Shown: one piece after another, positions 4,059 through 35,144 of the stretch
Layout of the letters: each line of letters opens with the position of its first letter
Position numbering within the stretch: the first letter of the stretch is position 1
From: a virus
Lineage: Duplodnaviria; Heunggongvirae; Uroviricota; Caudoviricetes
Length of the DNA: 64,000 nucleotides
Virus record (IMG/VR): IMGVR_UViG_3300009826_000001
Location: 1 to 64,000 of that record
Strand: one strand, 5' to 3'
Made by a program: the position numbers and the translations under genes
Notes under the pieces: generated by a model
What the model was told of the DNA's origin: nothing
Databases searched by the model: none
The model's input: the letters and a program-made list of their open reading frames with translations, nothing else

Positions 4059-4312
4059 GACTCGGTAACGCCGAAGGATCGGGTCGGATACGGCGGGGGT
4101 GTCAGGTCGAGGTCGGCGACCTTTTGCCCGTCGACCTCGACGCGGACATAGCCAGCGTCGTGCGGGATGAACTGGGCGATCCTGTCGTCTCCGATAAAGA
4201 TCGCGACGTGCTCGCCGTTGATGATCGCGTCCCACATGCGGTCATTCTGTTTGGTCAGCAGTCTTTGCAGCGCGATGGTGCTCCACACGCTGCGGTCGAT
4301 GTCGTCGCTCAT
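4055..4312 (-). CDS. hypothetical protein (85 aa)
   Basis: start MSDDID; ATGA overlaps on both sides. Confidence 0.5.
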   Translation of the reverse strand: MSDDIDRSVWSTIALQRLLTKQNDRMWDAIINGEHVAIFIGDDRIAQFIPHDAGYVRVEVDGQKVADLDLTPPPYPTRSFGVTES

Positions 4313-5175
4313 GACTGCGGCATCGGGATGACGGGCAGGCCCGGTTGCGTGGAGTTGGGCCAGCACCCGATGGGGCTGCGGTCCTTGTGCGCGTCCAGGC
4401 ACTTGCTCACCAGCACGTTGGGGTCGTTGCTCACCGACTGGCGCAGCTTCTCGTTGGCCTTGGCATCGGCCTCGGCGGTCTTCTCGCGCTGCTCGGCCAC
4501 GCGGGTGTTGGCCTTCTCGATGTTCAGCGCGTTGATCCGGTCCTGAGTGTTGTTGTCGTAGGCCACCAGCGGCACGAACACTTTCTGAATCTCCACCCGG
4601 TCACCCACGGCGCGCTGCACGTCGGCCTGCACCCGCTCGGAGATCCCCACCAGCGGCGCGCCGTCGCTGGCGCCGGGAGCCAGCGGGTCGAACTTGGCGA
4701 ACTCGGTGTTGAGCGCCACGGCCAACTCCTTGTTGACCAGGTTGTCGCGGATGCCGTCGAAGTTGCGGTAGTCCAGGAACAGGCTCGGCGCGGCCTTGGG
4801 GTCCAGCCGCCACTGGATCGTCACGTTGGCCGTGGCCGTGGAGTTGTTGCCCAGGCGCACCACCATGCCGTGATCGGTGCCCTCGAACTTCTCGAGCTGC
4901 ACTGCGCCGTCCATGTTGGTGACGTTCTGCCACGGTGCGGTCCAGTGCAGGCCGTTGGACAGCTCCCCTTGTGGCCGGCCGAAGGTCGTGACGATGCCGA
5001 TGTCGCGGGTGGGCACGATGGTCGCAGTGGAGAACATCAGCAGTAGTCCCGCCAGGAGCGCGCAGCCGATGGCGGTGCCCCAGGCGGGCGCCCGCGCGCT
5101 GCGCACCGCGAGCCCGAAGATCACAGCGCCCAGCGCCACCAGAACCAACAGGCCGATCACAACGACGATGAACAA
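4309..5175 (-). CDS. SPFH/band-7 (stomatin/prohibitin/HflKC-like) membrane protein
   Basis: N-terminal TM helix, then VPTRDIGIVTTFGRP...LSNGLHWTAPWQNVTNMDGAVQ SPFH-like core and EKANTRVAEQREKTAEADAKANEKLRQ coiled coil. Confidence 0.65.
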   Translation of the reverse strand: MFIVVVIGLLVLVALGAVIFGLAVRSARAPAWGTAIGCALLAGLLLMFSTATIVPTRDIGIVTTFGRPQGELSNGLHWTAPWQNVTNMDGAVQLEKFEGTDHGMVVRLGNNSTATANVTIQWRLDPKAAPSLFLDYRNFDGIRDNLVNKELAVALNTEFAKFDPLAPGASDGAPLVGISERVQADVQRAVGDRVEIQKVFVPLVAYDNNTQDRINALNIEKANTRVAEQREKTAEADAKANEKLRQSVSNDPNVLVSKCLDAHKDRSPIGCWPNSTQPGLPVIPMPQS

Positions 5176-5189
5176 GGGGAGTCCTCTCT

Positions 5190-5414
5190 CTAGGTGGTGG
5201 TCACGCGGTACATCGACAGGAGAGCGTCGATACCTTCGGGCCCATCGGCCTCGAAGAATTGGGGGGCGGCATGGGCGTCCGGGCCGCGCACGACGAGCCA
5301 GTCCCAGCCCACCGCCTCGATCCGCACATAATCGTTGCCCAGCATGAACGCGCCGCCACAGTAGCCGTCGAGCAGTTCTCCGACCTGCGGCGGCTTGGGG
5401 AAGATGTCAGGCAC
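5190..5414 (-). CDS. hypothetical protein (74 aa, GTG start)
   Basis: ORF track. Confidence 0.45.
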   Translation of the reverse strand: MPDIFPKPPQVGELLDGYCGGAFMLGNDYVRIEAVGWDWLVVRGPDAHAAPQFFEADGPEGIDALLSMYRVTTT

Positions 5415-5607
5415 GGCGCTGCACCACCTTGGCCACCAGCTCCGGTGAGCAGCCGATCTGGCGCGCGAGGCTGACGTAGCTGCCGCAGCCCTCGGCGTAG
5501 GCGCGAGCGATCAACTCGTCACGCTGGCGGCGGCACTGGTCGCTCTGGCCCGAGAACTCCAGGATTCGTCTGTGAAGTTCCCGGGCCTGAGCGACCAACG
5601 CATCCAT
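5407..5607 (-). CDS. small HTH DNA-binding protein
   Basis: GSYVSLARQIGCSPELVAKVVQRR helix-turn-helix-like segment. Confidence 0.5.
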   Translation of the reverse strand: MDALVAQARELHRRILEFSGQSDQCRRQRDELIARAYAEGCGSYVSLARQIGCSPELVAKVVQRRA

Positions 5608-5865
5608 TCACCGCACCATCTTGTCGGTCGGGTAGACCGCACCGCAGACGAGGCAGGTCTTGCGGTTCTGGGAATCGCGCAGCCGCCGCGTCTTCTCCTC
5701 GTGCGCGTGATAACGCACAATGCCGCCGGTGATGATGACGGCCAGCAGGAGCACGGCACACAGCGCGAAGCCCCAGCCCACCACCCAGGAGGGAATGCCC
5801 GCGACCATCGGCACAGTCTCAGGACAGTCGGGCACATCCACGGTGATCTGCCGCAGCGGGATCAT
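5608..5865 (-). CDS. small membrane protein (85 aa)
   Basis: hydrophobic segment VVGWGFALCAVLLLAVIITGGIV. Confidence 0.45.
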   Translation of the reverse strand: MIPLRQITVDVPDCPETVPMVAGIPSWVVGWGFALCAVLLLAVIITGGIVRYHAHEEKTRRLRDSQNRKTCLVCGAVYPTDKMVR

Positions 5866-6059
5866 GGCCCCATCAGCTCGCTGATCGCTTGCTCGGTGGG
5901 GCTAATGGTCTGGCGCATCTGCTCGATGACCTGCGCACGCATGTCGATGGCCTGGACCAAGCGTCGTGCGGCGTCGATCACTGCGGCCGACGAAGCCGGT
6001 CGCGGCCAGTGAGCGTGCGCCTCCAGTGCTTCGCGCAGCTCGTCGAGCGGTGAGCCCAT
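5862..6059 (-). CDS. hypothetical protein (65 aa)
   Basis: start MGSPLDEL overlaps rsr stop (TGATG). Confidence 0.4.
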   Translation of the reverse strand: MGSPLDELREALEAHAHWPRPASSAAVIDAARRLVQAIDMRAQVIEQMRQTISPTEQAISELMGP

Positions 6060-7771
6060 CAGATGAGGCCGGCCGAGAACTGGCTGATCACCTGCGGAAC
6101 ATTGCTGTCGAACCCAGAGATGTCGATGCTGCCCGCATCCTTCGGGTCGGCGATCGACGTCCCGTTGGCGGTCATGGCCACCACGCCGTAGCGCGTGGGC
6201 CCGTAGCGGTCCCGGTAGGTCTTGAGCGCCTGGTGCGGGTGGATGCTGCCGTACCAGGTTTCCCCGTCCGTGAGCGTCCAGATGGCGTCGAAGTTCAGGT
6301 TCTCCTTCGCCGCCCACTGCATGGGCAACGAGCAGTCCGTCGCGCCGAAGCTCAGGCCGGCCATGTAGCGGCACACGTCGTCGAGGCGACGGCGCGGAGT
6401 GATGTCCAGCCGGGTGGCCGCCGAATTGCGACGCGTGTAGGCGCCGTAACCGCCGCGCTGACCGTCCGAGAACCCGATGATCTCAGCGTCCTTCTCGACG
6501 TTGAGCGTCACCAGCGCGAGCGCGGCCACTGCCTCGCGGCAGGAGATCGGCAGCCCCGACACCGCGCCCCCCATTGAACCCGACACATCGCAGGCCAAGA
6601 GCACCTTCTTGCCGCACGGCTCGACCGCTCCGTAGGCCGCGTAGAACGCGGCGTCCAGCGCGTCGGTCATCTTGGGCGTGGGCGTCCAGGTGGACTCCCC
6701 ACGCGCGGAGCGGCCACTGGCGTAGGTGCGCTGGGCCACCAGCACGTTGATCGGATGCACCCGGCCGCGCTTGAGCCGCTCGGCGTCCTGCAAGTCGCGG
6801 GCGATCACGTTGCCGTAAGCGGAGGTGGTCAGGCCCAGCCGGGTCAGGCGCGGGAGCTGGCGCATGAGCGCGGTGATCGGCATCCCGCCTTCGGCATCCA
6901 GCAGCGCCTCCCACACGCTCGGCTCAACCAGCGCGGCATCGGGCAGCATCTCCCAGGACAACGAGGGATTGTCAGTGATGATCCGAATCCACTGGCTTGC
7001 GCTGGTCGCGGCCTGCGCCTCGATGAACGCGTTGACCAACGCGGGAAGCGCGCGCGGGGTTGCACTCGCGGTGAGCGGAGAGCCCCACGCGTACCCGTTA
7101 CGGTGCCTGTCGGTGATGGCGTTGACGCGCTCGCTGTCGCGTCCGGCCATCGTGTCCACGATGTAGCTGTAGAGCGCATCGCGTGACGCGTCATTGGGGC
7201 ACGGGTGGCTCAGCGCGAGCAGGTCGGCGTGGCGCCAGCCCTCCCGCTGGCGGTACTTGAGCACCTGGTAGGCGAGCTTCTCGGCGTCCTTGGCGTTGTA
7301 CCAGTCAGCCACGGCGCGCTTAAGCGCGCGGCCCCAGCCGCGGAAGTTCTGCACATATCCGGCGAACAGGTACAGGTGACTGGCGGTGCGGCACACGGCG
7401 GGAAGCTTGGAGAGCGCGTAGGCGCGATCGTCTGCGCGCTGCGCCAACGACGCGGCGACAGCCAGCGCGAAGATCGCCGGGTTCTGCCGGGGTGCGCGGC
7501 CCTGTGTGGAGATTTCGGTGAGGGCATCGACGAGCAGGATCGGGCTGGTCTGCGCAAGCTCGACGACGACCTGGGCGTTCTCGCGGGTGAGCTCCGGCTC
7601 GCGCGTGTAGTACGTTCCGCCCTCGGTGCCCAGCGTCAGGAACCGGCGCAGCCGGGTGAACTGGTCGGTGCCGAACACGAAGCCGCCGGCGGCGTTTTTG
7701 ACGGTCGCATCGCCGGCGGGCTGGTTCTGCGGGGTGGCCCGCGTGGAGATCGCGGACAGGGCATCGGCCAT
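6059..7771 (-). CDS. rsr: Ro60 orthologue (TROVE domain + vWA/MIDAS domain), Rsr-like RNA-binding protein
   Basis: RLRRFLTLGTEGGTYY and RQNPAIFALAVA match the Ro60 TROVE signature; C-terminal vWA with LLACDVSGSM MIDAS (DxSxS). Confidence 0.9.
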   Translation of the reverse strand: MADALSAISTRATPQNQPAGDATVKNAAGGFVFGTDQFTRLRRFLTLGTEGGTYYTREPELTRENAQVVVELAQTSPILLVDALTEISTQGRAPRQNPAIFALAVAASLAQRADDRAYALSKLPAVCRTASHLYLFAGYVQNFRGWGRALKRAVADWYNAKDAEKLAYQVLKYRQREGWRHADLLALSHPCPNDASRDALYSYIVDTMAGRDSERVNAITDRHRNGYAWGSPLTASATPRALPALVNAFIEAQAATSASQWIRIITDNPSLSWEMLPDAALVEPSVWEALLDAEGGMPITALMRQLPRLTRLGLTTSAYGNVIARDLQDAERLKRGRVHPINVLVAQRTYASGRSARGESTWTPTPKMTDALDAAFYAAYGAVEPCGKKVLLACDVSGSMGGAVSGLPISCREAVAALALVTLNVEKDAEIIGFSDGQRGGYGAYTRRNSAATRLDITPRRRLDDVCRYMAGLSFGATDCSLPMQWAAKENLNFDAIWTLTDGETWYGSIHPHQALKTYRDRYGPTRYGVVAMTANGTSIADPKDAGSIDISGFDSNVPQVISQFSAGLI

Positions 7772-7791
7772 AGTGATTCCTCTCTGGTTGG

Positions 7792-7866
7792 GGCATGAAC
7801 GAAGTAGGTGTGACCGGATGATTTCTCATTGCAAGGGAGGTAACCGATCACAATCCGGCTCATGCC
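7792..7866 (-). ncRNA. structured RNA-like repeat unit 1 (75 nt; Y-RNA-like/tRNA-mimic candidate)
   Basis: 7-bp terminal stem GGCATGA/TCATGCC; conserved internal motif GAACGAAGTAGGTGTGACCGG; inner GCCGGA/TCCGGC stem; D-loop-like GATCGGTTA on minus strand; strand uncertain. Confidence 0.4.
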
Positions 7867-7876
7867 AGGGGTTGAG

Positions 7877-7948
7877 GGCGTGAACGAAGTAAATGCCGAC
7901 TGGGATTATCTTCCTGAAAGGTAACCAACCGGACTAGCGGCTCACGCC
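7877..7948 (-). ncRNA. structured RNA-like repeat unit 2 (72 nt)
   Basis: terminal stem GGCGTGA/TCACGCC; ACGAAGT motif; inner GCCG/CGGC stem; D-loop-like GGTTGGTTA. Confidence 0.4.
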
Positions 7949-7957
7949 AACATCTTG

Positions 7958-8082
7958 CGCCGCGAACGAAGTGGGTGTGACCGGCGTTTACCTGCTCTGC
8001 CAGTTGAGCTTCGAGACTGCCCCAGCAGTCCCGGTCGGATTCGAACCAACAACACTGATAACCGATTACGTCCGGCTCGCGA
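7958..8082 (-). ncRNA. structured RNA-like repeat unit 3 (125 nt) with tRNA T-arm mimic
   Basis: terminal stem GCCGCGA/TCGCGAC (1 mismatch); GAACGAAGTGGGTGTGACCGG motif; minus-strand GTTGGTTCGAATCCGAC T-arm-like element (8030-8050) and GACTGC-TGGG-GCAGTC hairpin. Confidence 0.45.
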
Positions 8083-8092
8083 CAACATCTGC

Positions 8093-8209
8093 GTGACGAA
8101 CGAAGTAGGGGCGATCCGCACTCGGTATTTCCCGACCCCGGGCCGGGCGTTCTTTCTTGAACTATCACCCTGCGGGCGAACAGGTAAGCGAATCATTTCG
8201 GCTCGTCAC
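8093..8209 (-). ncRNA. structured RNA-like repeat unit 4 (117 nt)
   Basis: terminal stem GTGACGA/TCGTCAC; GAACGAAGTAGGGG motif; no T-loop. Confidence 0.35.
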
Positions 8210-8219
8210 CGAAGTTGTG

Positions 8220-8384
8220 GGTGGGGAACGAAGGGGTTGGCAACCGGAGAGGGCTTACGCCCAGCGAGTTAGGCCACTACTCTACGGCCCGCTCACGCTT
8301 CTCAACGCTTCGCAGGCCGGCGGGATTCGAACCCGCGATCTCATCTTTGACAGAGATAACCAATTGCACGGTCGGCTCCCCACC
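8220..8384 (-). ncRNA. structured RNA-like repeat unit 5 (165 nt) with tRNA T-arm and D-loop mimics
   Basis: 8-bp terminal stem GGTGGGGA/TCCCCACC; minus-strand GCGGGTTCGAATCCCGC (perfect T-arm) and AATTGGTTA D-loop-like; no matching acceptor or anticodon arm. Confidence 0.45.
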
Positions 8385-8394
8385 ACAAGCTAGA

Positions 8395-8514
8395 GGACGC
8401 GAGCGAAGAAGGTGAAGACCGGGTTTCACGCCGGGGCGAAACCCGACGCGGCAGGGTTTGAACCTGCTATGCCAAGTTAACCGATCATCGAACGGCTCGC
8501 GTCCCTATTCAGCT
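8395..8514 (-). ncRNA. structured RNA-like repeat unit 6 (120 nt) with T-arm mimic
   Basis: 10-bp terminal stem GGACGCGAGC/GCTCGCGTCC; minus-strand GCAGGTTCAAACCCTGC T-arm-like and GATCGGTTA D-loop-like. Confidence 0.45.
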
Positions 8515-8630
8515 TTCAAGCAACAACTCAGGGTATGTACGGCGTACATGCTTGTCAAGGACATGTTTTCCCGGCGCGCCGCGAGTCATTACCCATTGCC
8601 GCCCGGATTCGGGCATACAGTGGCGATGTG

Positions 8631-8855
8631 ATGAGAATCCTCGTGGCGGCCCAGATCGGCGGTCGCAACGTGACCGAGACGGTGGAAGTGCCCAACGAGA
8701 CGCGCCAGGCGTTCCGCATGGCGATCGGTGACATCGCGTGCCGCCTGGAGCTGTCCACCTACGGCCCTCCCAGTCCCGTCGAGGAGATGACAATGGAGGA
8801 TCAGCCGGTGAACCTGGGCCAGTCTTTCGCGCGTGGGCCCAAGCCTAATGGCTAA
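8631..8855 (+). CDS. hypothetical protein (74 aa)
   Basis: in-frame ATG at 8631 within ORF 8535..8855; MRILVAAQIGGRNVTETVEV... Confidence 0.4.
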   Translation: MRILVAAQIGGRNVTETVEVPNETRQAFRMAIGDIACRLELSTYGPPSPVEEMTMEDQPVNLGQSFARGPKPNG

Positions 8856-9042
8856 CCGCGGCCTCAAGCGCGCCTACCCGATGGGGCCGCCGCAGCGCGA
8901 CGAGCTGATCATGCGGCTACGCCACCAGGGGTTCACCTACAAGGAGATCGCCGAGCGCGTCGACATGGACGAGTCTGGCGTGCGGCGCGCCGTCGAGCGA
9001 ATCCGCTCCGGCGGCTTCGGCACGGGCGTTATTCGCAGCTAG
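8848..9042 (+). CDS. sigma-70 region-4/LuxR-like HTH protein (64 aa)
   Basis: QRDELIMRLRHQGFTYKEIAERVDMDESGVRRAVERIR; ATG overlaps upstream stop (ATGGCTAA). Confidence 0.5.
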   Translation: MANRGLKRAYPMGPPQRDELIMRLRHQGFTYKEIAERVDMDESGVRRAVERIRSGGFGTGVIRS

Positions 9043-9196
9043 GATCATCCACACCGCGACTGCGGCCGTCAGTGCGAGTACGGCCCCGGCGAACTTCAGC
9101 CACCACTCCCGCCAGTAACGCTCCCGGTGAGTGGTCACGCCATGCGACGCGCACACCCACATGTACTGCGGGTGGTTCTTGCGCCAGCAGTTGCAC

Positions 9197-9463
9197 TTAC
9201 CCATTCGTACCAGGACTAACCCTGAGTCCACCCTCATAGTCCTGTCGGGCCAGATCGACCGAGGCGACAGCGGGTATCCCCGCGTAACGCTCAAGTTGAG
9301 CGGCCAGCCACCAGATCATGCCGTACAGCTCCTGGATGGCCTCATAGACATCGCCCGAACTGCAATCCAGCATGGACTGGAGTTGGTCGTTAGCCAGCAA
9401 CTTTCCCTGATCGTCTACGCAATGACCGTAGCTTCCAGCCACCGTGGTCCTTTCATCCATTGA
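9197..9463 (-). CDS. hypothetical protein (88 aa)
   Basis: start MDERTT within ORF 9197..9544. Confidence 0.4.
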   Translation of the reverse strand, partial: SMDERTTVAGSYGHCVDDQGKLLANDQLQSMLDCSSGDVYEAIQELYGMIWWLAAQLERYAGIPAVASVDLARQDYEGGLRVSPGTNG

Positions 9464-10287: not shown

Positions 10288-10532
10288 GAGTGCCTTTCCT
10301 TGACGTGTTGGGCGACCCACTCGGCCGCCTCCTTGACGGTGGTGAACCCGGCGTAGGACTCGCCGCAGTTCTCGCACACGACCAGCTTGTCGGTCGGGTG
10401 CGGCTCGGCGACGATCTCTACCCTTGGTGGATCTGCGGGTCGTTGCGCTGCTTCGCTCGCTGCCGATGGCTTCTTAGGCCGGCGGCCACGACCCCGAAAG
10501 CGGTTCGGGAGCCAGCCCCTCGGAGGGCTCAT
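10284..10532 (-). CDS. hypothetical protein with CxxC motif (82 aa)
   Basis: ORF track; KLVVCENCGESYAGF. Confidence 0.5.
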   Translation of the reverse strand: MSPPRGWLPNRFRGRGRRPKKPSAASEAAQRPADPPRVEIVAEPHPTDKLVVCENCGESYAGFTTVKEAAEWVAQHVKERHS

Positions 10533-10972
10533 GGCTCCTGTTCGCCCACAGTCAGGATCGCCGGGTTGACCACTCCGCCGCTCTCGTCGGCAACGACAGC
10601 CTTTTCCTCGCTCAGATACTGCCGGTTGTGCCAGCGCCGCAGTATTTCGCCGTACGCCCAGAACCGGGCGAGCGCCTCCACCGCACAGCCGTACATGAAC
10701 CCGGTGATGCCGATGTCAGCGTCGGCGTCCTGGCTGGCCTGCTCGGCGATCTCGAGGATGACCTTGGTGACGCCGTCGTGGTAGGCGGCGATCTCCTGCG
10801 AGGTCCACTGGTCGACCGGACCGCCGGGAATCAGTTCCCGGCGCCTGACCTCGGCCTCCATCAGCTCGGCCCACTTCTCGCCGTAGCGCACGACGGCCCT
10901 GCTGTAATCGTCGTCGTTGTTGACCGCGACGTAATCCTGATACTCAGCTTCCCTGCCGGCCACGATCTGCAT
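10529..10972 (-). CDS. hypothetical protein (147 aa)
   Basis: ORF track. Confidence 0.55.
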   Translation of the reverse strand: MQIVAGREAEYQDYVAVNNDDDYSRAVVRYGEKWAELMEAEVRRRELIPGGPVDQWTSQEIAAYHDGVTKVILEIAEQASQDADADIGITGFMYGCAVEALARFWAYGEILRRWHNRQYLSEEKAVVADESGGVVNPAILTVGEQEP

Positions 10973-15505: not shown

Positions 15506-15909
15506 CCAATATTGAGTGGCCGGCAGGATCGCTGAATGAACGCCGCGCCATCTTCGTCTATGAGGTCGCACGCCTGCAGGCCGCGGCGGTTGGCGCGCCT
15601 ATCGTCCCCGAGTCGTGGTCGCACCGTGACGAGGCGTTCCGGTCACAATTCCTCGGTGTCATCGAAATGATGGCCGGCGCGGACCGCAAAAGTGATCCCG
15701 AAGAACTGCACAACGACTGGTGGCGCAAGTACGAGGAGATGGGCTGGGTTTATGGCCCTGAGCGCGATCCGGTCAAAAAGACACATCCTGACATGGTGGA
15801 TTTCAAGCTGCTCGGCTGGCGTGAGCGTAACAAGGACGCTGTGTTCGTCGCGCTCTGCGAGCTAGCACGTCAATGGATCATTGACGACGATCCCGAGGAG
15901 GCGGCATGA
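15502..15909 (+). CDS. hypothetical protein (135 aa)
   Basis: ORF track. Confidence 0.5.
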
Positions 15910-16370
15910 CCGGAAAGCTCTCCGACGAGGACGGTTATGCGTCGGCACCCGGTGTCGAGGACATGGTCGCGGCGTGCGAGAAAAACACCGCGTGGCGCCG
16001 GGTGCTGGCCACCAGCGAGCGCACCCAGATCGTGCTCATGTCCATCCCGGTGAACACCGACATCGGCGCCGAGGTCCACAAGGTGGATCAGACCATCGTC
16101 TTCGTGGCCGGCGAGGGCTACGCCGACCTGGACGGCAGCAGAACAAAGATGGGCCCGGGCTGGATCGCGTTCGTGCCCAAGGGAACCCGGCACAACTTCA
16201 TCAACACCGGCATGGGGGACCTCAAGCTCTATACCGTCTACGCGCCGCCCAACCACAAGCCCGGCGACGTGGAGAAGACCAAGGCCGATGCCGCCAAGGT
16301 GCCCGACGTGCCACTGCACTCCGGGCGCACCTTCGCCTTACCGCGCCGCGATGCCTGGTATTACCAATGA
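15906..16370 (+). CDS. cupin-domain protein
   Basis: [20 protein letters not shown] matches cupin motif 2 G(x)5PxG(x)2H(x)3N; β-rich. Confidence 0.55.
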
Positions 16371-17995
16371 CAGCCGCCGTCGCCGAGGCGGTCCCTACGC
16401 TGGGATCGACGCTGCCGCGCATCTATACCCCTCCCCTGCCGGAGAACTGCGATCCGTATTACGAAGGGCCACAATGCCCTTGCGGCTGCGGGCTGAATGA
16501 CCAGACCAGCTGGGGCTACAGCGCGACCGACTTCCTGGAGAACCTGTGGCACTGGGAGCTGTTGCCCTGGCAGGTCTTTCTCAACTGGCACACCCTGGAG
16601 AAGCGTCCAAAGACCCACTCCGGCTTCCGATTTCCCACCACTTTGGTACTGGTTGCCCGCCAGCAGGGAAAGACCAAGTGGCTCAAGGGCATTGGCCTGT
16701 GGCGGCTGTTCATGGACGAGGGCGGTAAGTCCAGCGCGAGCTGCCCGGCCGCCAAGCTGGCGGTGATCGCGGCGCAGAACCTCGACTATGCCGAGACGAT
16801 GCTGGCCGACGTGGTGGGTGAGATCCGCAGCCACCGAGTCTTCTCCCGCGAGCTCGTCAACCACCGGGTGGTCAACGGCAAGCACCGCGCCATCCTGACC
16901 AATGACCGGCTGTGGCGCGCCGCCACCGCGAGCCGCCGTGGCGCCCGATCGCTGTCGGTGGACCTCGCCATGCTCGACGAGCTGCGCGAGCACACCACCC
17001 ATGACGCCTACAACGCGATCGCCCCGACCACCACGGTGCGGCCCTACTCCCAGGTGATCTGCACGTCCAACGCCGGCGACGTGCGCAGCGTGGTGCTCGA
17101 GGAACTGCGCGAGGTCGCCACCCGGCGCATCGTCAACAACGACACCGAGGGCGCTCAGGTGGGCCTGTGGGAGTGGAGCGTCCCGCTGGACGCCGACCCA
17201 CACGACCAGCAGTTCTGGCACCTCGCGCTGCCGTCGATGGGCCGGCTCAACGAGTTCACGATCGACACCGTGCGCGGCTACTACGAGGCCATGCAGTACA
17301 AGAACATGCCCGGGTTTCGCACGGAGTTCTTATGCCAGACGGTTGACGCGCTGGAACCCGGCATCATCCCGGCCGAGCAGTGGATGGACGGCAAGGACGC
17401 CGCCAGCCGGCGTGCCGAAGGGAGCCTTGTGTATGCCGCCCTCGACATCAGCTACGACCGCAGCTATTCCTACATCGCGGTCGCGGCCCGGCGTGAGGAC
17501 GGCAACATCCACATCGAGGTGATCCAGGCCGCCAATGGCACCGACTGGGTGATTCCGTGGCTGGTCGAGCGCAAAGACAAGTTCGTCGGGGTGGCCGTGC
17601 AGAAGACCGGCGCGCCGGCGTCGAGCCTGATCCCCGAGATGATCGAGGCCGGAATCAAAGTCGTGGAATGGGGGCCGGGCTCCGAGGTCACCGGGGGCTG
17701 CTCGCTGTTCTACGACCGCATCGTCCAGGGCCAGGTTTTCCATAGGCCCAGCCTGGTCCTGGACCGGGCAGCTGCCTCCACGATCAGCCGGCGCGTCGTT
17801 GACGCGTGGGTGTTCGATCGCCGCAACTCTCCGGTGGACGCCGCGCCGCTGGTGGCGTGCGCTGCTGCGGTGTGGCTCCTGGAGCAGATTCCCGAGCCCG
17901 AGCCGATGATCCATTCTTGGCCGAGCGAGGACGAGATCGCGGCGTGGGAGCGCGAGGCAGAAGAACAAGCAAAGGAGATGGGATATGACCGATGA
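16367..17995 (+). CDS. terminase large subunit
   Basis: ATGA overlap with cupin stop; Walker-A-like LVARQQGKTKW; size and position upstream of portal. Confidence 0.8.
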   Translation: MTAAVAEAVPTLGSTLPRIYTPPLPENCDPYYEGPQCPCGCGLNDQTSWGYSATDFLENLWHWELLPWQVFLNWHTLEKRPKTHSGFRFPTTLVLVARQQGKTKWLKGIGLWRLFMDEGGKSSASCPAAKLAVIAAQNLDYAETMLADVVGEIRSHRVFSRELVNHRVVNGKHRAILTNDRLWRAATASRRGARSLSVDLAMLDELREHTTHDAYNAIAPTTTVRPYSQVICTSNAGDVRSVVLEELREVATRRIVNNDTEGAQVGLWEWSVPLDADPHDQQFWHLALPSMGRLNEFTIDTVRGYYEAMQYKNMPGFRTEFLCQTVDALEPGIIPAEQWMDGKDAASRRAEGSLVYAALDISYDRSYSYIAVAARREDGNIHIEVIQAANGTDWVIPWLVERKDKFVGVAVQKTGAPASSLIPEMIEAGIKVVEWGPGSEVTGGCSLFYDRIVQGQVFHRPSLVLDRAAASTISRRVVDAWVFDRRNSPVDAAPLVACAAAVWLLEQIPEPEPMIHSWPSEDEIAAWEREAEEQAKEMGYDR

Positions 17996-18455: not shown

Positions 18456-19816
18456 GCGTTCTCGCCCGACTGATGCCGCGCGGCGGCGCGATGGAGCGCC
18501 GCACGCTGGAAAGCTCTGCGTTCGTCCCACCCCCTCAAGTCGGTGTGATCGACGATTACGTCGGCGTACACCGGGCGATGAGCTCAATGACGGTGATGGC
18601 CTGCGTGCGGCTGCTCTCCGATACCATCGCCAGCCTGCCGTGGAAGGCATACCGCAAGGGCAAGGACGGCATCCCCGTCGAGGTCGACCCGCAGCCGGCG
18701 ATCCTGCGCAGCCCGTTCCCCGGCTTCGACTTGTTTCAGTACAAGTGGATGATGGTGTCCTCGATGGCGTTGCGCGGCAACTTCTACGCCTACGTCACCA
18801 GCCGCGACGCCATGTTCCGGCCCACCGCGATCCTGCCTCTGCACCCCGACCTGATTTTTTTGGAGCGCCGACCCGACATCCTGATGTGGATGGACCCCAT
18901 CTACCGCATCATGGGCCAGCAGGTGCCCAGCCAGGACATGGTCCACATCCGGCGCTTCACGATGGCCGGCGAGCCGTGGGGCCTCTCCCCGGTCAAGCAG
19001 GCCGCGGCGGCGATCGGGATGAGCCTGGCCGCCGAGGAATACGGCTACCGCTATTTCCGCGAGTCGGCCAACCCTTCGGGCATGTTGATGACCGAGCAGA
19101 ACCTGTCCGACGACGTGGTCAAGCGCCAGCAACAGCAGTGGATCGCCAGCCACGGTGGCCGCCGGCTGCCGGCGGTGCTCACCGGCGGCTTCAGCTTCAA
19201 GACGCTCACGATTGCGCCCAACGAGGCGCAGTTCCTAGAAACCCGTCAGTTCCAGCGGTCTGAGATCGCCATGATGTACGGGATACCGCCGCACATGATC
19301 GGCGACACCGAACGGTCCACCAGCTGGGGCACCGGCATCGAGCAGCAGTCCATTGGCGCGGTCACATTCACCTTCCGGTCCTGGGCCGCGCCGATTGAAT
19401 CCGTGATGACCAACCTGCTGCCAACCGGCCAATATGTCCGGTTCGACTTCAACGAATTGACCCGAGGTGACATCAAAGCGCGCTACGACGCCTACGACCA
19501 GGCGATCCACTCCGGCTGGCTCAACGTCAACGAGGTTCGCCGCGACGAGCAACGGCCACCGATCGGACCTGATGGCGAAATCTACCTGCAGCCGGTCAAC
19601 TACGCGCCGCTGGGCTTCACCCCGGTGGCAGCACCACCCAAGGCGCCGCCGGCCGTGCCCCCGAACTACCCCGAAGCTCCCGGGGTGAAAGAGCCACCCG
19701 GAAAGGCTGGGCCGCCGCAGCCGGGGAAGCCAAACGGTAAAGGCACCCGAGATGACATCGGTGAGTATTTCGGGCGCCTATATCCGTGGCTTGACCCAGA
19801 GAATCAGCGAGGATAA
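18452..19816 (+). CDS. portal protein
   Basis: 454 aa, position between terminase and protease; HK97-like portal composition. Confidence 0.75.
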   Translation: MSVLARLMPRGGAMERRTLESSAFVPPPQVGVIDDYVGVHRAMSSMTVMACVRLLSDTIASLPWKAYRKGKDGIPVEVDPQPAILRSPFPGFDLFQYKWMMVSSMALRGNFYAYVTSRDAMFRPTAILPLHPDLIFLERRPDILMWMDPIYRIMGQQVPSQDMVHIRRFTMAGEPWGLSPVKQAAAAIGMSLAAEEYGYRYFRESANPSGMLMTEQNLSDDVVKRQQQQWIASHGGRRLPAVLTGGFSFKTLTIAPNEAQFLETRQFQRSEIAMMYGIPPHMIGDTERSTSWGTGIEQQSIGAVTFTFRSWAAPIESVMTNLLPTGQYVRFDFNELTRGDIKARYDAYDQAIHSGWLNVNEVRRDEQRPPIGPDGEIYLQPVNYAPLGFTPVAAPPKAPPAVPPNYPEAPGVKEPPGKAGPPQPGKPNGKGTRDDIGEYFGRLYPWLDPENQRG

Positions 19817-19820
19817 AGGG

Positions 19821-22001
19821 ATGGACCACAGTAATCGCGCCCGCCTGATCGACGTCCCGGAGCGCCGCACCCTCGCGATGCCACCGGAGTTGCGTAAAGA
19901 CCCGGGCACCGGGCAGCTGGTGATGAGCGGCTACGCCGCGACGTGGGACCCCTACGACTGCTACGGCGGACCCGACCACGGCGGGTGGGTGGAGAAGCTG
20001 GAACGGGCCGCGTTCGAGCGCACCCTTGACGAGAAGCCCGACATGATGCTGCTGGTCAACCACGAGGGACTGCCGCTGGCGCGCACCAAGAGCGGCACGC
20101 TGCAACTTGACACCGACCGGCGAGGTCTGACGATGCGCGCGATGCTCGATCCCGACGACCCCGACGTGCAGCGGCTGATCCCGAAGATGAAGCGCAAAGA
20201 CCTCAACGAGATGAGTTTTTCGTTCCGGGTCAAAGATCAGGCGTGGAACAGCGATTACAGCCACCGCACGATAACTGAACTATCACTTCAGAAAGGGGAC
20301 GTGTCGATTGTCAATTACGGCATGAACCCCAACACCCATGCGATCATGGGCGTGGAATCGCTGGCACGCGCGGACGGGAGCGCACTGATGGAGGTCCGGC
20401 GCCTGGACCGCACCGTGCTGGCCGGGGCGATGGCCAACCTGCGCCGCGCCTGGCGTGCCAACGAGGAACCCGAGCACTGCCCCGGTGGCGCGGATTGCAT
20501 GGGCGCGATGTGCCCCGACCACGGCGAGAAGGCCGGCAAGCGCCAGTCCACGCTGGTCAACTTCGATGGCGGTCACTTGCTGCACGGCGGGGAGTGCCTG
20601 ACGTGTGCGGGGGCCCGCGCCAAGACGCCGTCCCAGTACGGCAACGTCGACTACGCCGACCCCGGCTACCTGGACAGCTCGGGCAAGCAGGCCAAGGGCG
20701 GCAACGGCGTCAAGCGGTACCCGATAGATAAGACCCACGTCAAAGCGGCGTGGAGCTATATCAACATGCCCAAGAACCAGAAGGGCTACACGCCAAGCCA
20801 GCTGGCGTCGATCAAGAACAAGATCAAGGCTGCCATGAAGAAGTTCGGGCACGATACCGACGACAGCGACTCCAAGAGCCTGCAGACCGTGGTCGATATC
20901 GACCGGGTCGAGGGCGTGCGAACCGCAACCGGCGGCCTGGCGCTGGTGGCCGTGATGACCGATGGGTCGCGCACCCCGCTGCCGTCCTTGCAGGACACTT
21001 CCAGCCCGATTTCGGGCGTTCCCAGGATGCGCAAGACCGACAACTCGGTCACCGGGTCGGGCAAGGTCAGCGGAACGCGCGTGCCGGTCAAGGACGAGGG
21101 CGAGGACGACCCCGACGAGTTCGGCGAGCCGATCAAGGCCAGTATGCAGAACTGGAAGGACGACGAGGGCCCGAACGACCCGCACAACGAGCCCTACAAG
21201 GCACCGGGTCGCACCGGGCCGGGACAGGCCACCGACAATTCGGTGCTGGACGCCAAGCCCAAGACCAAGGACACCGACTTCTACGACATCTGGCCGGAGT
21301 ATTCGCCCAACGATCCGCACGACGACCCGTATGACGCGCCCAGCGACGAGGGTGACAAAGACCCCGACGAGCTGCACGGCGACCCGGCCCCCGAGCCGAG
21401 CCCCGCAGTCGGCACGGCGTTTCGGCAGGGCACCGGCCCGCGGCTGGGTGGTCACGACATTCCCACCACCGACCATCCGTACAGCGACGATATCGGCACC
21501 GAGCCCTCCGGTGATGCCTATGGCCCGCAGAAGGAGATGGACGACGAGGCCGTCGAGGACGAGCACCACGCCAAGACCACCAGCACCTCCAAGGAGTGGA
21601 TGGAGGGCAGCGCGGCCGAGGACCCGTGGGGCAAGCGCGAGCTGCCCGAGGACAATCCCGACTTCGACGACCCGGTGAAGATCCACGCCACTGCGCGCCG
21701 CGAAGGCAAGAAGCCGCCGACCGATCCCGATGACCCGGAGTACGAGAATGAGCGCCAAGACGGCGAGTCCGAGGCCGCCCCGGACTTCGGCGGCGGCGAG
21801 GATGGCGAGTCCGATTCCGACATGTCCGACGACATGGACGACGCCACGACAGGAGATGGCGGCGATGGCGGCGGCCTGGGCGAGATGTATTCCTACCAGC
21901 CCAGCGTGACCGAGCACCTGCAGCGACTACGACGCAATGCCGAGCTGCCCGACCTGCCGACGCTTGCTGAGGCGGCGGCGTACCTGCACCAGCTGGGCTA
22001 G
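19821..22001 (+). CDS. capsid maturation protease fused to long acidic scaffold-like C-terminal extension
   Basis: N-terminal about 200 aa HK97 prohead-protease-like; C-terminal about 480 aa D/E/P-rich; RBS AAAGGG before ATG 19821. Confidence 0.7.
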   Translation: MDHSNRARLIDVPERRTLAMPPELRKDPGTGQLVMSGYAATWDPYDCYGGPDHGGWVEKLERAAFERTLDEKPDMMLLVNHEGLPLARTKSGTLQLDTDRRGLTMRAMLDPDDPDVQRLIPKMKRKDLNEMSFSFRVKDQAWNSDYSHRTITELSLQKGDVSIVNYGMNPNTHAIMGVESLARADGSALMEVRRLDRTVLAGAMANLRRAWRANEEPEHCPGGADCMGAMCPDHGEKAGKRQSTLVNFDGGHLLHGGECLTCAGARAKTPSQYGNVDYADPGYLDSSGKQAKGGNGVKRYPIDKTHVKAAWSYINMPKNQKGYTPSQLASIKNKIKAAMKKFGHDTDDSDSKSLQTVVDIDRVEGVRTATGGLALVAVMTDGSRTPLPSLQDTSSPISGVPRMRKTDNSVTGSGKVSGTRVPVKDEGEDDPDEFGEPIKASMQNWKDDEGPNDPHNEPYKAPGRTGPGQATDNSVLDAKPKTKDTDFYDIWPEYSPNDPHDDPYDAPSDEGDKDPDELHGDPAPEPSPAVGTAFRQGTGPRLGGHDIPTTDHPYSDDIGTEPSGDAYGPQKEMDDEAVEDEHHAKTTSTSKEWMEGSAAEDPWGKRELPEDNPDFDDPVKIHATARREGKKPPTDPDDPEYENERQDGESEAAPDFGGGEDGESDSDMSDDMDDATTGDGGDGGGLGEMYSYQPSVTEHLQRLRRNAELPDLPTLAEAAAYLHQLG

Positions 22002-24511: not shown

Positions 24512-25999
24512 ATGCCCGAGTTGCTAGAGGAGCGAGATCCGCTCAATCCGGCCGGGGGCATGGAGGCGTACCTCAAACGTATGCTCCAGCGCCGGGCTCA
24601 ATTAGTCCGACAGCGCGAGGCGTTGCAGGAGAAGGCCGAGGCCGTCCTGCTCGAAGCGCGCAGTGCGGGCCGCGACCAGCTTGGTCCTGAGGAAGATTCC
24701 GAGCTGCGCAAGTACACCAAGCAGATGAAGGCCCTGGGCGCCGACATTGCCGGCCTCGACGAGCGTATCGAGGAAACCCGGCAAGAGGTCGAGCGCACCG
24801 GCTCCATCAGCAAGAACCTCGCCAAGATTCGGCAGGCCGAGACTGCGGTCACCCGGGTCCGTGAGATGGCGGTCTACCAGCAGGGTGACAAGCGCCGGTC
24901 CTATATGCAGGACTTGGTGAAGATGAGCCTCAACCTGGACGCCACCGGCGAGTGCCGGGAACGCCTGATGCGGCACGCACAGGACGTTGCCACCAGCGAT
25001 GACTACCGGGAGTTCCGCGACATCGACCGGGTTGACGGTACCGGCGGTTACGCCGTGCCGCCCGTCTGGCTGATGAATCAGTACATCGAGTTGGCACGTC
25101 CGGGCCGGGCGTTCGCCAACCTGGTGCAGCGCCAGCCACTACCCGGCGGTACGGACTCGATCAACATCCCCAAGCTGTTGACCGGGACCGCGGTCGGTAT
25201 GCAGACCGACAACCAGGACGTCACCGAGGTGGACCTGACGGACACCTTCGTGAACGCTCCGGTACGCACCATCGCCGGCCAGCAAGGGCTCGCCATCCAG
25301 TTGATCGACCAGTCGCCCATCGCGTTCGACGACGTGGTGTTCCGCGACCTGGTGGCCGCGCACGCCGCCGCTGTGGACCAACAGGTTCTACAGGGCGACG
25401 GCACAGGCGGGCTTGGCCCGGGCAACCAGGCCGGCGGCCAGGTGCTCGGCGTGGACTACACCCCGGGGATTCTCACAGTGGCAGCCGCCACGGTGGACAT
25501 CCAGGGCGTGTACTCCGCGATCGCCAACGCCATCCAGCAAGTGCACACCACGCGTTTCCTGCCGCCCGAGGTGATCGTCATGCACCCGCGGCGATGGGGC
25601 TGGTTCCTGAGCCTGCTGGACACCACGCAGCGCCCGCTGTTCCTGCCCAGCGCCAACAGCCCGATGAACATCGGCGGTCTGTTGACTGCGGTGGCAAGCC
25701 AGCAGGTGGTCGGCCAGATGCACGGCCTGCCGGTGGTCACCGACCCGAACATCTCCACTGGGACGCCGCCTACCGGCGCACCGTTGGGGACGCCGGGCGA
25801 TGGCGAGGACACCATCTACGTCGCACGCGTGAGCGACTTGGTTCTGTGGGAGGGTGGCATCCGCGCTCGCGTGCTGCCGGAAACCCGCGCACAGACCCTG
25901 ACAGTCCTCCTGCAAATCTATTCGTACATCGCGTTCAGCGCAGGGCGGTATCCACAGTCCGTCGCGGTCATAACAGGTTTGACCCCACCGACCTTCTGA
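24512..25999 (+). CDS. major capsid protein (HK97 fold) with N-terminal coiled-coil delta-like region
   Basis: AAGGGA RBS; 495 aa; position after protease/scaffold; followed by strong terminator. Confidence 0.8.
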   Translation: MPELLEERDPLNPAGGMEAYLKRMLQRRAQLVRQREALQEKAEAVLLEARSAGRDQLGPEEDSELRKYTKQMKALGADIAGLDERIEETRQEVERTGSISKNLAKIRQAETAVTRVREMAVYQQGDKRRSYMQDLVKMSLNLDATGECRERLMRHAQDVATSDDYREFRDIDRVDGTGGYAVPPVWLMNQYIELARPGRAFANLVQRQPLPGGTDSINIPKLLTGTAVGMQTDNQDVTEVDLTDTFVNAPVRTIAGQQGLAIQLIDQSPIAFDDVVFRDLVAAHAAAVDQQVLQGDGTGGLGPGNQAGGQVLGVDYTPGILTVAAATVDIQGVYSAIANAIQQVHTTRFLPPEVIVMHPRRWGWFLSLLDTTQRPLFLPSANSPMNIGGLLTAVASQQVVGQMHGLPVVTDPNISTGTPPTGAPLGTPGDGEDTIYVARVSDLVLWEGGIRARVLPETRAQTLTVLLQIYSYIAFSAGRYPQSVAVITGLTPPTF

Positions 26000-34671: not shown

Positions 34672-35144
34672 TGGTCGGTGCGGTGATCACGCGGCACTGG
34701 CCGGCCTTGGTGCGCGATGTCCTCGCGCTGGGCTACCGGCCAACCGACCTGTTCACCAAGCTGAGCTTCTCCGAAGTCGCCTGCATCATCATCGCCTCAC
34801 CTCCCAACAGCGCGGTGCGCCATTCCGTCGACAAGGGCTGGAGCCGCGAGGCGCACCTGCTGGCGAACATGGCCGAAGGTGAGGCCGGCATCGCCAAGAT
34901 CAAGGAGCCCTATCAACGGCCCGGCGTGACCGAACGCCAGTCCGACGACCCCACCCAGAACCCGTTCTTCACCGCCGATGCGCTGACCTGGGAGGAATTC
35001 GACCGGCGTGAGAAAGAACGCTACGACCCCAACCGTAAGCACGTGAAACGACCCGGTAGCAGTCATTCCCGGGCGCTGCAGAGCTCGGGCCCCCGCCCGG
35101 TTCCTAAGGTCAACGAACTGAAGTTCGGCAGGAACCGTAAATGA
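34171..35144 (+). CDS. tail assembly chaperone G-T product via programmed -1 frameshift near 34653-34669
   Basis: -1 frame open from 34653 through 35144; G-run CCGGGGGAA in the 17-nt overlap window; T ORF ends 3 nt into the TMP start. Confidence 0.5.

Follow-up and report, generated by a model that had tools for sequence, protein, structure and literature searches.

Why would a phage carry a Ro60 gene, and what occupies the long gene-free DNA in front of it? The locus that raises this question lies in a 64,000-nt stretch of viral DNA (positions 1 to 64,000 of the IMG/VR record IMGVR_UViG_3300009826_000001, Caudoviricetes), referred to here as the window, in which the gene for a Ro60/Rsr orthologue is preceded on its own strand by an array of six Y-RNA-like modules. 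By analogy with the few systems that have been studied, we consider it probable, with moderate confidence, that protein and RNAs form a phage-made Ro60-Y RNA particle that would re-direct or attenuate host RNA decay, for example by way of PNPase.

Identity and fold of the Ro60 protein

The initial annotation had described a 570-aa open reading frame (ORF) on the minus strand, 6059..7771, as a phage-encoded, full-length Ro60 with a TROVE domain and a vWA domain bearing a MIDAS (metal-ion-dependent adhesion site). The ORF is present as described. It starts with ATG, 6-7 nt downstream of a Shine-Dalgarno-like ribosome-binding site, GAGAGGA (7778..7784, minus strand, read directly from the sequence), and the three motifs quoted for its product, RLRRFLTLGTEGGTYY, RQNPAIFALAVA and LLACDVSGSM, are all found in the translation. 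In the Pfam search that the annotation had proposed as a check, the TROVE (HEAT-repeat ring) domain, PF05731, was highly significant at aa 24-347 (6731..7702, minus strand; E 1.5e-49, 169.8 bits against a cut-off of 23), and the Ro60-type vWA domain, PF25045 (vWA_Ro60), was also above its cut-off at aa 389-565 (6077..6607, minus strand; E 7.2e-51, 172.8 bits against 27.7). Among PDB sequences searched with phmmer, the best match is Xenopus Ro60 (1yvp; E 1.4e-95, window residues 14-570 against 6-538), and D. radiodurans Rsr (2nvo; E 3.6e-91) and human Ro60 (9nen; E 1.6e-90) also match, so that the similarity to known Ro60/Rsr is far above chance. The protein falls in PHROG 850 (phrog_850, 'RNA-binding protein'; 3.5e-92). 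Only one phage Ro60, phiRo60 of Thermus phage phiLo (9KOP/9L5Y), has a solved structure, and it is a remote sequence match (E 1.5e-4).

The fold points in the same direction. An AlphaFold2 model built on 33 homologues reached a mean predicted local distance difference test (pLDDT) score of 83 and a predicted template modelling (TM) score of 0.78. Foldseek aligned it to the Ro60 structures 2i91, 1yvp and 9nep with TM scores of 0.74-0.83 over 557-566 columns, to Rsr 2nvo with 0.68-0.77, and to phiRo60 with 0.52-0.63 at 18% identity. Loss of the conserved ring residues, which would have spoken against the annotation, was looked for, and K172, R176, H189 and five MIDAS residues were all found to be kept. 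The MIDAS residues (D395, S397, S399, T478 and D502; definition taken from PMC11277228) are invariant in 33 relatives of 55-70% identity and align to the DVSAS, TDC and TDCET motifs of Xenopus. In the TROVE domain, K172, Y173, R174 and R176 are invariant in the same relatives, and a pairwise alignment places K172/R174/R176 on Xenopus K170/K172/R174, and H189 on H187. Fuchs and colleagues are said to have assigned K170 and R174 to the RNA-binding cavity in 2006, and we take K172 and R176 of the window protein to be basic cavity residues on the strength of that role. The H189 position holds His in the window protein and in 18 of the 33 relatives, and Arg in 11 of them; an H187S mutant was reported to lack Y RNA binding (PMC11277228; Xenopus/mouse numbering). 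With Pfam, the PDB sequence alignments and AlphaFold2/Foldseek in agreement, sequence and model confirm the protein as a full-length Ro60/Rsr orthologue, with TROVE, a vWA domain with complete MIDAS, and a predicted closed-ring fold.

The cavity itself allows another role to be envisioned, namely RNA quality control or repair for the benefit of the phage, where misfolded or damaged host rRNA and tRNA, or phage transcripts, would be threaded for refolding or degradation, e.g. after UV or oxidative stress, and the Y RNAs would mainly gate the cavity and not act as tethers. The residues aligned with Xenopus K170/R174 are invariant, the best structural matches of the model (2i91 and 9nep) are Ro60 structures with misfolded RNA, and a gate-and-tether model has been described (PMC4201824). 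Such a role would leave the upkeep of six distinct effector domains, conserved across phages, unexplained, and the neighbourhood of the gene holds no RtcB or RtcA; we therefore judge it unlikely.

An array of six Y-RNA-like modules

The attenuation or re-direction of host RNA decay that we favour would depend on RNA partners, which the initial annotation had expected the phage to carry along with the gene. Between the Ro60 start (7771) and a divergent gene pair (8631-9042, plus strand), which bounds the non-coding array, about 860 nt are without a called gene, and they hold six Y-RNA-like modules with support from covariation and from a covariance model. All six lie 20-733 nt upstream of Ro60 on the same strand, well inside the range (within 4 kb of the Ro60 gene, same strand) by which Chen et al. 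2014 recognised Y RNAs (PMC4201824).

Each module begins with xxxxGAGCCG...(GAU)CGGUUAYC and ends with CCGGUC...(A)CUUCGUUCxxxx, where the closing bases xxxx vary between modules and are always complementary (closing-stem pairs CGCGAGC/GCUCGCG, GGGGAGC/GUUCCCC, GACGAGC/GUUCGUC, GCGUGAGC/GUUCACGC and GCAUGAGC/GUUCAUGC). The docking helix so formed pairs 5' GAGC-[bulged C]-GG(A) with 3' (A)CUUCGYYC and is continued by an upper stem, GAUCGG/CCGGUC; its 5' strand GAGC-C-G, with the bulged C, is invariant and pairs with CG-YYC. The helix can be read as a variant of the Ro-binding motif stem (GNCGAAN0-1G or GGUCCGA, with a bulged C), and RNAfold closes the terminal stem in 6/6 modules.

The modules differ in what the helix encloses; all are on the minus strand, and the bit scores given here are those of covariance model R1, which was trained on ten short modules only. 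M5 (7876..7949; 76.1 bits) and M6 (7791..7867; 73.7 bits), both of the short type, are simple hairpins of about 75 nt, M6 with the closing stem GCAUGAGC/GUUCAUGC, a bulged C and the upper stem GUGAUCGG/CCGGUCAC. M4 (7958..8084; 35.9 bits, untrained) is of the canonical YrlA type, with an acceptor-like hairpin and with a T-arm (GUUGGUUCGAAUCCGAC) and a D-arm (AGCUCAACUGGCAGAGC) that align to the YrlA model. M3 (8092..8210; 43.6 bits, untrained) has GNCGAA in its exact form (GCCGAAAUG) and encloses three hairpins. M2 (8220..8384), the longest, has an acceptor-like hairpin, a T-arm (CGCGGGUUCGAAUCCCGCC) aligned with the tRNA model (27 bits), and a hairpin resembling a type-II D-arm, while M1 (8395..8504; 46.8 bits, untrained) has a T-arm-like hairpin (GCAGGUUCAAACCCUGC) only. 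Three modules (M1, M2 and M4) are thus predicted to carry tRNA-like parts, and the locus has at least one RNA in which T-arm, acceptor-like stem and D-arm come together, the tRNA-like domain by which Y-RNA loci are recognised.

M2 was also considered as a real, possibly permuted, tRNA, for its 7-nt loop CUGUCAA resembles an Asp anticodon loop; this was rejected because the score is sub-threshold, the acceptor positions are mispaired and the loop is not conserved in the orthologous modules. The spacers between modules (7868-7875, 7950-7957, 8085-8091, 8211-8219 and 8385-8394, minus strand) measure 7-11 nt and have in common a loose CA(A)GAUGUUGG-like motif, found also in the related locus L005, which may be a processing signal for cutting a precursor.

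Covariation and conservation of the modules

Is the array real? For covariation, 33 modules from six phage loci were anchored on the motif and their stem halves aligned without gaps. Standard pairs fill 90% of the stem cells, against 32-44% when the partners are slid by 1-3 columns, a paired fraction that is inflated by the choice of 3' partners with at least 4/5 complementary flank bases. Four stem columns carry 12-16 double compensatory changes each with no more than one unpaired cell, double-change stem cells number 61 against 16 expected, and the observed covariation score was reached by none of 500 shuffles. The concern over selection bias is removed because R1 recovers the untrained long modules independently: M1, M3 and M4 were found at E 4e-7 to 4e-10, together with the corresponding modules in relatives, and in the 64-kb window R1 had no match outside the array. 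M2 was undetected by R1 in both default and filters-off runs (with filters off, the long modules score below the default search); its support comes from its pair of motifs, from RNAfold, from a 5/5 closing stem and from the orthologues present in five other loci.

Besides that inflated fraction, the results that speak against taking the modules for Y RNAs come from Rfam and from the motif. At gathering thresholds Rfam gave no RNA match in the whole window. In E-value mode it gave, on the Ro60 strand, YrlA (RF02553) at 7960-8074, in M4 (35.4 bits, E 4e-5), and a tRNA-like match at 8312-8375, in M2 (27.2 bits), which fall below the gathering scores of 69 and 29, respectively. The exact GNCGAA occurs in M3 only, the common variant being GCCGGA(U/C)G. 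The YrlA matches in the phages Boopy, Alice, Farewell and Magritte are likewise sub-threshold, at 25-52 bits.

The array is also conserved across the phage clade. Five related loci for which DNA was at hand have a gene-free gap of 550-1060 nt at the same place, and a similar gap is seen in the gene calls of a sixth (P0017); the same search recipe finds 6, 7, 5, 6 and 3 modules in the five, and orthologous module classes recur in much the same order among these phages, at 61-70% protein identity. Over 58 independent IMG/VR Ro60 loci, all 74 of the 74 R1 matches are on the Ro60 strand, nearly all of them directly upstream.

One further feature of the helix is that its 3' strand varies in concert within each phage (columns 23-24 of the module alignment, A1). 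It reads GUUC in 5/6 window modules and in all modules of the related loci L007, L008 and L010; GCCC in 6/6 modules of L005, which creates an A-C mismatch; and GCUC in 4/6 modules of L009, a fifth having GCUU. The pattern points to gene conversion inside the arrays or to co-evolution of the strand with the Ro60 of the same phage.

The phage and its relatives

That the gene is phage-encoded, as the initial annotation had it, is borne out by the rest of the window, with genes for a large terminase (15881-17995), a head-maturation protease fusion (19752-22001), a major capsid protein (24512-25999), a 3394-aa tape-measure protein (35141-45325, plus strand; weak match to phrog_991) and several minor tail proteins. 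A single ORF encodes the 3394-aa product, with the tail-assembly region on one side of it and the minor tail genes on the other; should all of it be one tape measure protein, its length would be extraordinary and would imply a tail several hundred nm long.

Mapped by coordinates, the window corresponds to ~60.5-124.5 kb of JGI contig Ga0123356_10000051 in reverse complement, and independent gene calls gave the identical Ro60 (P0001) on 11 metagenomic contigs, of which the longest, 127,382 and 127,506 bp, come from independent assemblies. When the Ro60 region and 20 kb of structural genes were compared by megablast with ~50,000 deposited phage genomes, only short matches of 75-90% were found, the best at ~75% identity over ~400 nt, so that the phage is not assignable to a known cluster. 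The closest Ro60 proteins, at 61-70% identity, are all from metagenomic contigs, many of them 87-165 kb long; M. smegmatis Rsr (P0106) and the Ro proteins of mycobacteriophages Sparky and Farewell are 55-56% identical to the window protein, and those of cluster C phages ~50%. A phylogeny had been proposed as a check, and in a crude neighbour-joining (NJ) tree, built with no bootstrap, the window Ro60 lies within the metagenomic phage clade, which is set beside mycobacterial Rsr and the Sparky/Farewell group and apart from cluster C phage Alice. The phage belongs to an undescribed, uncultured lineage of ~90-165 kb actinobacterial phages, and the 65% G+C and the nearest relatives make one of the Mycobacteriales the obvious guess for its host.

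The same data raise the question of whether the gene is simply a passenger, i.e. a host rsr locus that was recently captured, has no phage role and is possibly decaying. The ~55% identity to mycobacterial Rsr and its adjacency in the crude tree might be read in this manner, as might the layout in M. smegmatis, where the Y RNAs also lie upstream on the same strand. Against this, the ORF is unbroken and has kept every functional residue, the protein belongs to a clade of its own made up of phage-contig sequences at 61-70% identity, each with an array, and Ro60 is retained in 357 deposited phages and 58 IMG/VR loci, while the compensatory stem changes imply purifying selection on RNA structure. 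We consider a mere passenger highly improbable.

Three observations concern more distant loci. In a group of loci with isolate-genome style IMG/VR identifiers (L021-L029, L038, L049, L069 and L071), on viral contigs whose origin seems to be isolate genomes, Ro60 is 54% identical to that of the window and scores close to 'TROVE domain-containing protein' entries of Mycobacteroides abscessus. Two modules precede the gene in each of these loci, and the Rsr of M. abscessus may be carried by a prophage. In L072, a 405-kb viral contig of 42-43% G+C, two Y-RNA-like matches (5483-5872) lie downstream of Ro60 on the same strand. At least four modules are also found in the viral lineages L035 and L047.

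Genomic neighbourhood

Immediately beyond the array, a TTGACA-17 nt-TACCCT element (8530..8558, minus strand), read by eye, is a putative promoter that might serve the Y-RNA/Ro60 unit. An imperfect palindrome, ACATGTCC TTGACA AGCATGT ACGCCGTACAT (8536-8570, minus strand), overlaps the putative -35 element and could be an operator for an adjacent small helix-turn-helix (HTH) protein. The divergent pair at 8631..9042 (plus strand) consists, by gene calls and Pfam, of two small genes of 74 and 64 aa (HTH/sigma-70 region 4). On the other side, co-directional genes (4309..6059, minus strand) follow Ro60, namely four small ORFs of 65, 85, 66 and 74 aa and then an SPFH/Band_7 membrane-scaffold protein (4309-5175, minus strand) that is syntenic in the nearest relatives; in the three nearest, the Band_7 gene comes after one ORF of 66-67 aa (L005 7968-8990; L007 7917-8942).

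The minus-strand block of Ro60 also holds accessory or counter-defence genes (at 575-1117, 2183-2797 and 10529-10972, minus strand); among the genes of the block are a Tad4 type I Thoeris inhibitor homologue (81 bits, cut-off 25), a branch-1 histidine phosphatase and a Mom-family protein (32 bits, cut-off 27), and Acb5, Sequestin and PTH2 were found close to Ro60 in relatives. ARAGORN found no tRNA gene across the 64-kb window. In described phages (Farewell, Alice, Boopy, HangryHippo and Magritte) the Ro gene lies in or beside tRNA/tmRNA clusters, and in the window it is the tRNA-like Y RNAs that hold this position.

This setting brings up a reading in terms of tRNA mimicry, whereby M1, M2 and M4, kept stable by Ro60, would serve as decoys or sponges against host defences that target tRNA (anticodon nucleases, tRNA-cleaving toxins or damaged-tRNA sensors) and would thereby protect the translation apparatus. 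T-arm and/or D-arm mimics are present in three modules, the accessory block is shared with Tad4 and Mom (and, in relatives, with Acb5, Sequestin and PTH2), the window is without a tRNA gene where described phages have their Ro in tRNA/tmRNA clusters, and the rsr-yrlBA-rtcBA operon of Salmonella responds to damaged tRNAs (PMC7790460). All of this is contextual, however, and proximity to anti-defence genes means little in phage accessory regions. The loop of the anticodon-arm-like hairpin in M2 is not conserved among orthologues, and the best conserved modules, M5 and M6, are those without a tRNA-like part. Moreover, we know of no defence system that is blocked by a Y RNA. Hence we doubt that tRNA mimicry is the role of the array.

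A possible route to host RNA decay

The reading that we favour, a particle acting on host RNA decay, can be laid out as a series of steps. The array and the Ro60 gene would form one transcription unit, whose precursor would be cut into single Y RNAs, much as YrlA/YrlB are in M. smegmatis; packed as they are 7-11 nt apart, the modules would be excised from one precursor. Each Y RNA would then dock by the common helix on the outer rim of the Ro60 ring, in the manner of the Xenopus Ro60-Y RNA complex, leaving the variable internal parts (tRNA-like parts in M1, M2 and M4, several hairpins in M3 and one simple hairpin each in M5 and M6) as effector arms that could tether a host factor. Particles of this kind may engage host enzymes of RNA decay or quality control, with PNPase as the prime candidate, and the enzymes so engaged would be re-directed or attenuated during infection.

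Published systems speak for these steps, and the best models are the Rsr-Y RNA-PNPase machine (RYPER) of D. radiodurans and Salmonella and the phiRo60 complex. In M. smegmatis, the Y RNAs encoded in front of rsr are cut out of one common precursor and link Rsr to PNPase (PMC4201824), and phiRo60 of the Thermus phage binds two upstream Yrls as well as host PNPase, which it slows about four-fold in vitro (PMC12135203). The suggestion in the initial annotation that the phage manipulates RNA metabolism is thus a reasonable one, and agrees with the Thermus phage work (PMC12135203).

Other results pull the opposite way. In a consensus scan of 5800-9200, neither a promoter nor a terminator was called beside the array, and its single terminator-like match, inside M5, is within chance expectation. 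No gene for PNPase, RtcB, RtcA, rtcR or another known Ro partner was found near the gene or in the annotated flanks, so that the partner would have to be supplied by the host. Finally, the only phage Ro60 that has been studied biochemically is structurally distant from that of the window (TM 0.52-0.63, 18% identity), and for this reason attenuation of PNPase may not transfer to the window protein.

A more elaborate version can be put forth in which the array is a multiplexed kit of adaptors and decoys, one Ro60 ring reaching several host targets and co-evolving with its RNAs. If so, there would be six specialised Y RNAs with one docking helix and different effector arms, for which PNPase, enzymes that process or modify tRNA, and defence nucleases that target tRNA are candidate targets; the tRNA-like members would be counter-defence decoys in a region with Tad4 and Mom, and the concerted change of the 3' strand (GUUC, GCCC, GCUC) would reflect a Ro60 co-evolving with its own RNA set. 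Our estimate is that this is improbable. The array also supplies a ready collection of RNA variants with which to ask what host factor each effector arm recruits.

Comparison with known systems

A phage Ro60 with Y RNAs is an already known kind of system and not a new one, and in this respect the initial annotation overrated the locus. In the deposited-phage collection, 357 records match the window Ro60, and for 353 of these the match spans 80% or more of the protein; they come from phages of Mycobacterium, Streptomyces, Gordonia, Microbacterium and other hosts; among the matches listed, the annotation is 'Ro-like RNA binding protein' or 'RNA-binding protein'. Mycobacteriophage Ro60 goes back to Pedulla 2003 (as cited in PMC4201824), and Chen et al. 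2014 described YrlA-like RNAs in 22 bacteriophages (PMC4201824). As for what a phage Ro60 does in vivo, a non-exhaustive search of the literature found no report; the 2025 Thermus phage study was done in vitro, and its authors call for an infection model (PMC12135203).

The Ro-like proteins of mycobacteriophages (Farewell gp36, Sparky and the Alice/Bxz1-type of cluster C; PHROG 850) are the same two-domain, full-length protein, at 50-56% identity. By R1 and Rfam, Farewell has about two and Alice about three Y-RNA modules, directly upstream and on the same strand, compared with six in the window, and taken together with L035 and L047 they show that a multi-module arrangement is not unique to the window phage. 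The window phage differs from them in lying outside the deposited collection, its Ro60 being in a separate clade of 87-165 kb contigs, and in that its Ro60 is not embedded in a tRNA cluster. The Y-RNA-like matches in Alice (R1 and Rfam YrlA) overlap the hypothetical ORFs gp218/gp219 (L011 2597-2946), and those in Farewell (L001 3616-3836) are in unannotated space next to gp35. The small hypothetical coding sequences called upstream of the Alice Ro are probably RNA genes, as, probably, are some of the 'hypothetical protein' ORFs that precede Ro genes in other deposited phages.

Among bacteria, M. smegmatis Rsr with YrlA/YrlB (PMC4201824) likewise has Y RNAs upstream on the same strand, a tRNA-like YrlA and a shorter second RNA; it has two Y RNAs where the window has six modules, and a YUAY element after the Ro-binding strand, the counterpart of which in the window is GGUUAYC. 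The docking helix is conserved on both strands in the window, whereas only the 5' strand is recognisable in the M. smegmatis and Salmonella RNAs, and the window motif is mostly GCCGGA in place of the GNCGAA of bacterial YrlA (PMC4201824). The Rsr-Y RNA-PNPase complex of D. radiodurans and S. Typhimurium (RYPER) has an orthologous Rsr, Y RNAs less than 2 kb from the gene and a tRNA-like Y RNA; unlike the rsr-yrlBA-rtcBA operon, the window locus, in its phage setting, has no rtcB/rtcA/rtcR or PNPase gene nearby. The phiRo60 locus of Thermus phage phiLo (Hu et al. 2025, PMC12135203), which alone gives an experimental precedent for how a phage Ro60 acts, also has upstream non-coding Y-RNA-like genes and no phage PNPase, but phiRo60 has two Yrls against six modules, bears an extended C-terminal helix and can dimerise.

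What is specific to the window is thus the undescribed phage lineage, an array among the largest seen (six modules, with up to seven in a relative) with distinct conserved classes, a docking helix in which neither strand has lost its conservation, and an unusually high similarity to animal Ro60, to which the protein is much closer (TM 0.74-0.83) than to phiRo60. The vertebrate Ro60-Y RNA ribonucleoprotein (Xenopus 1YVP/1YVR, human 9NEN) is its best match in both sequence and structure. The 5' strand of the docking helix, G-x-x-C-[bulged C]-G-A, is GGUCCGA in animals and GAGCCGGA in the window, in both cases with a conserved 3' strand. Relative to the vertebrate protein, the window Ro60 has lineage-specific insertions at aa ~205-245 and ~435-450, of low pLDDT; the effector loops of the window RNAs are tRNA-like in place of the pyrimidine-rich loops of vertebrates, and the RNA genes of the window, unlike theirs, are clustered and probably co-transcribed with the gene for the protein.

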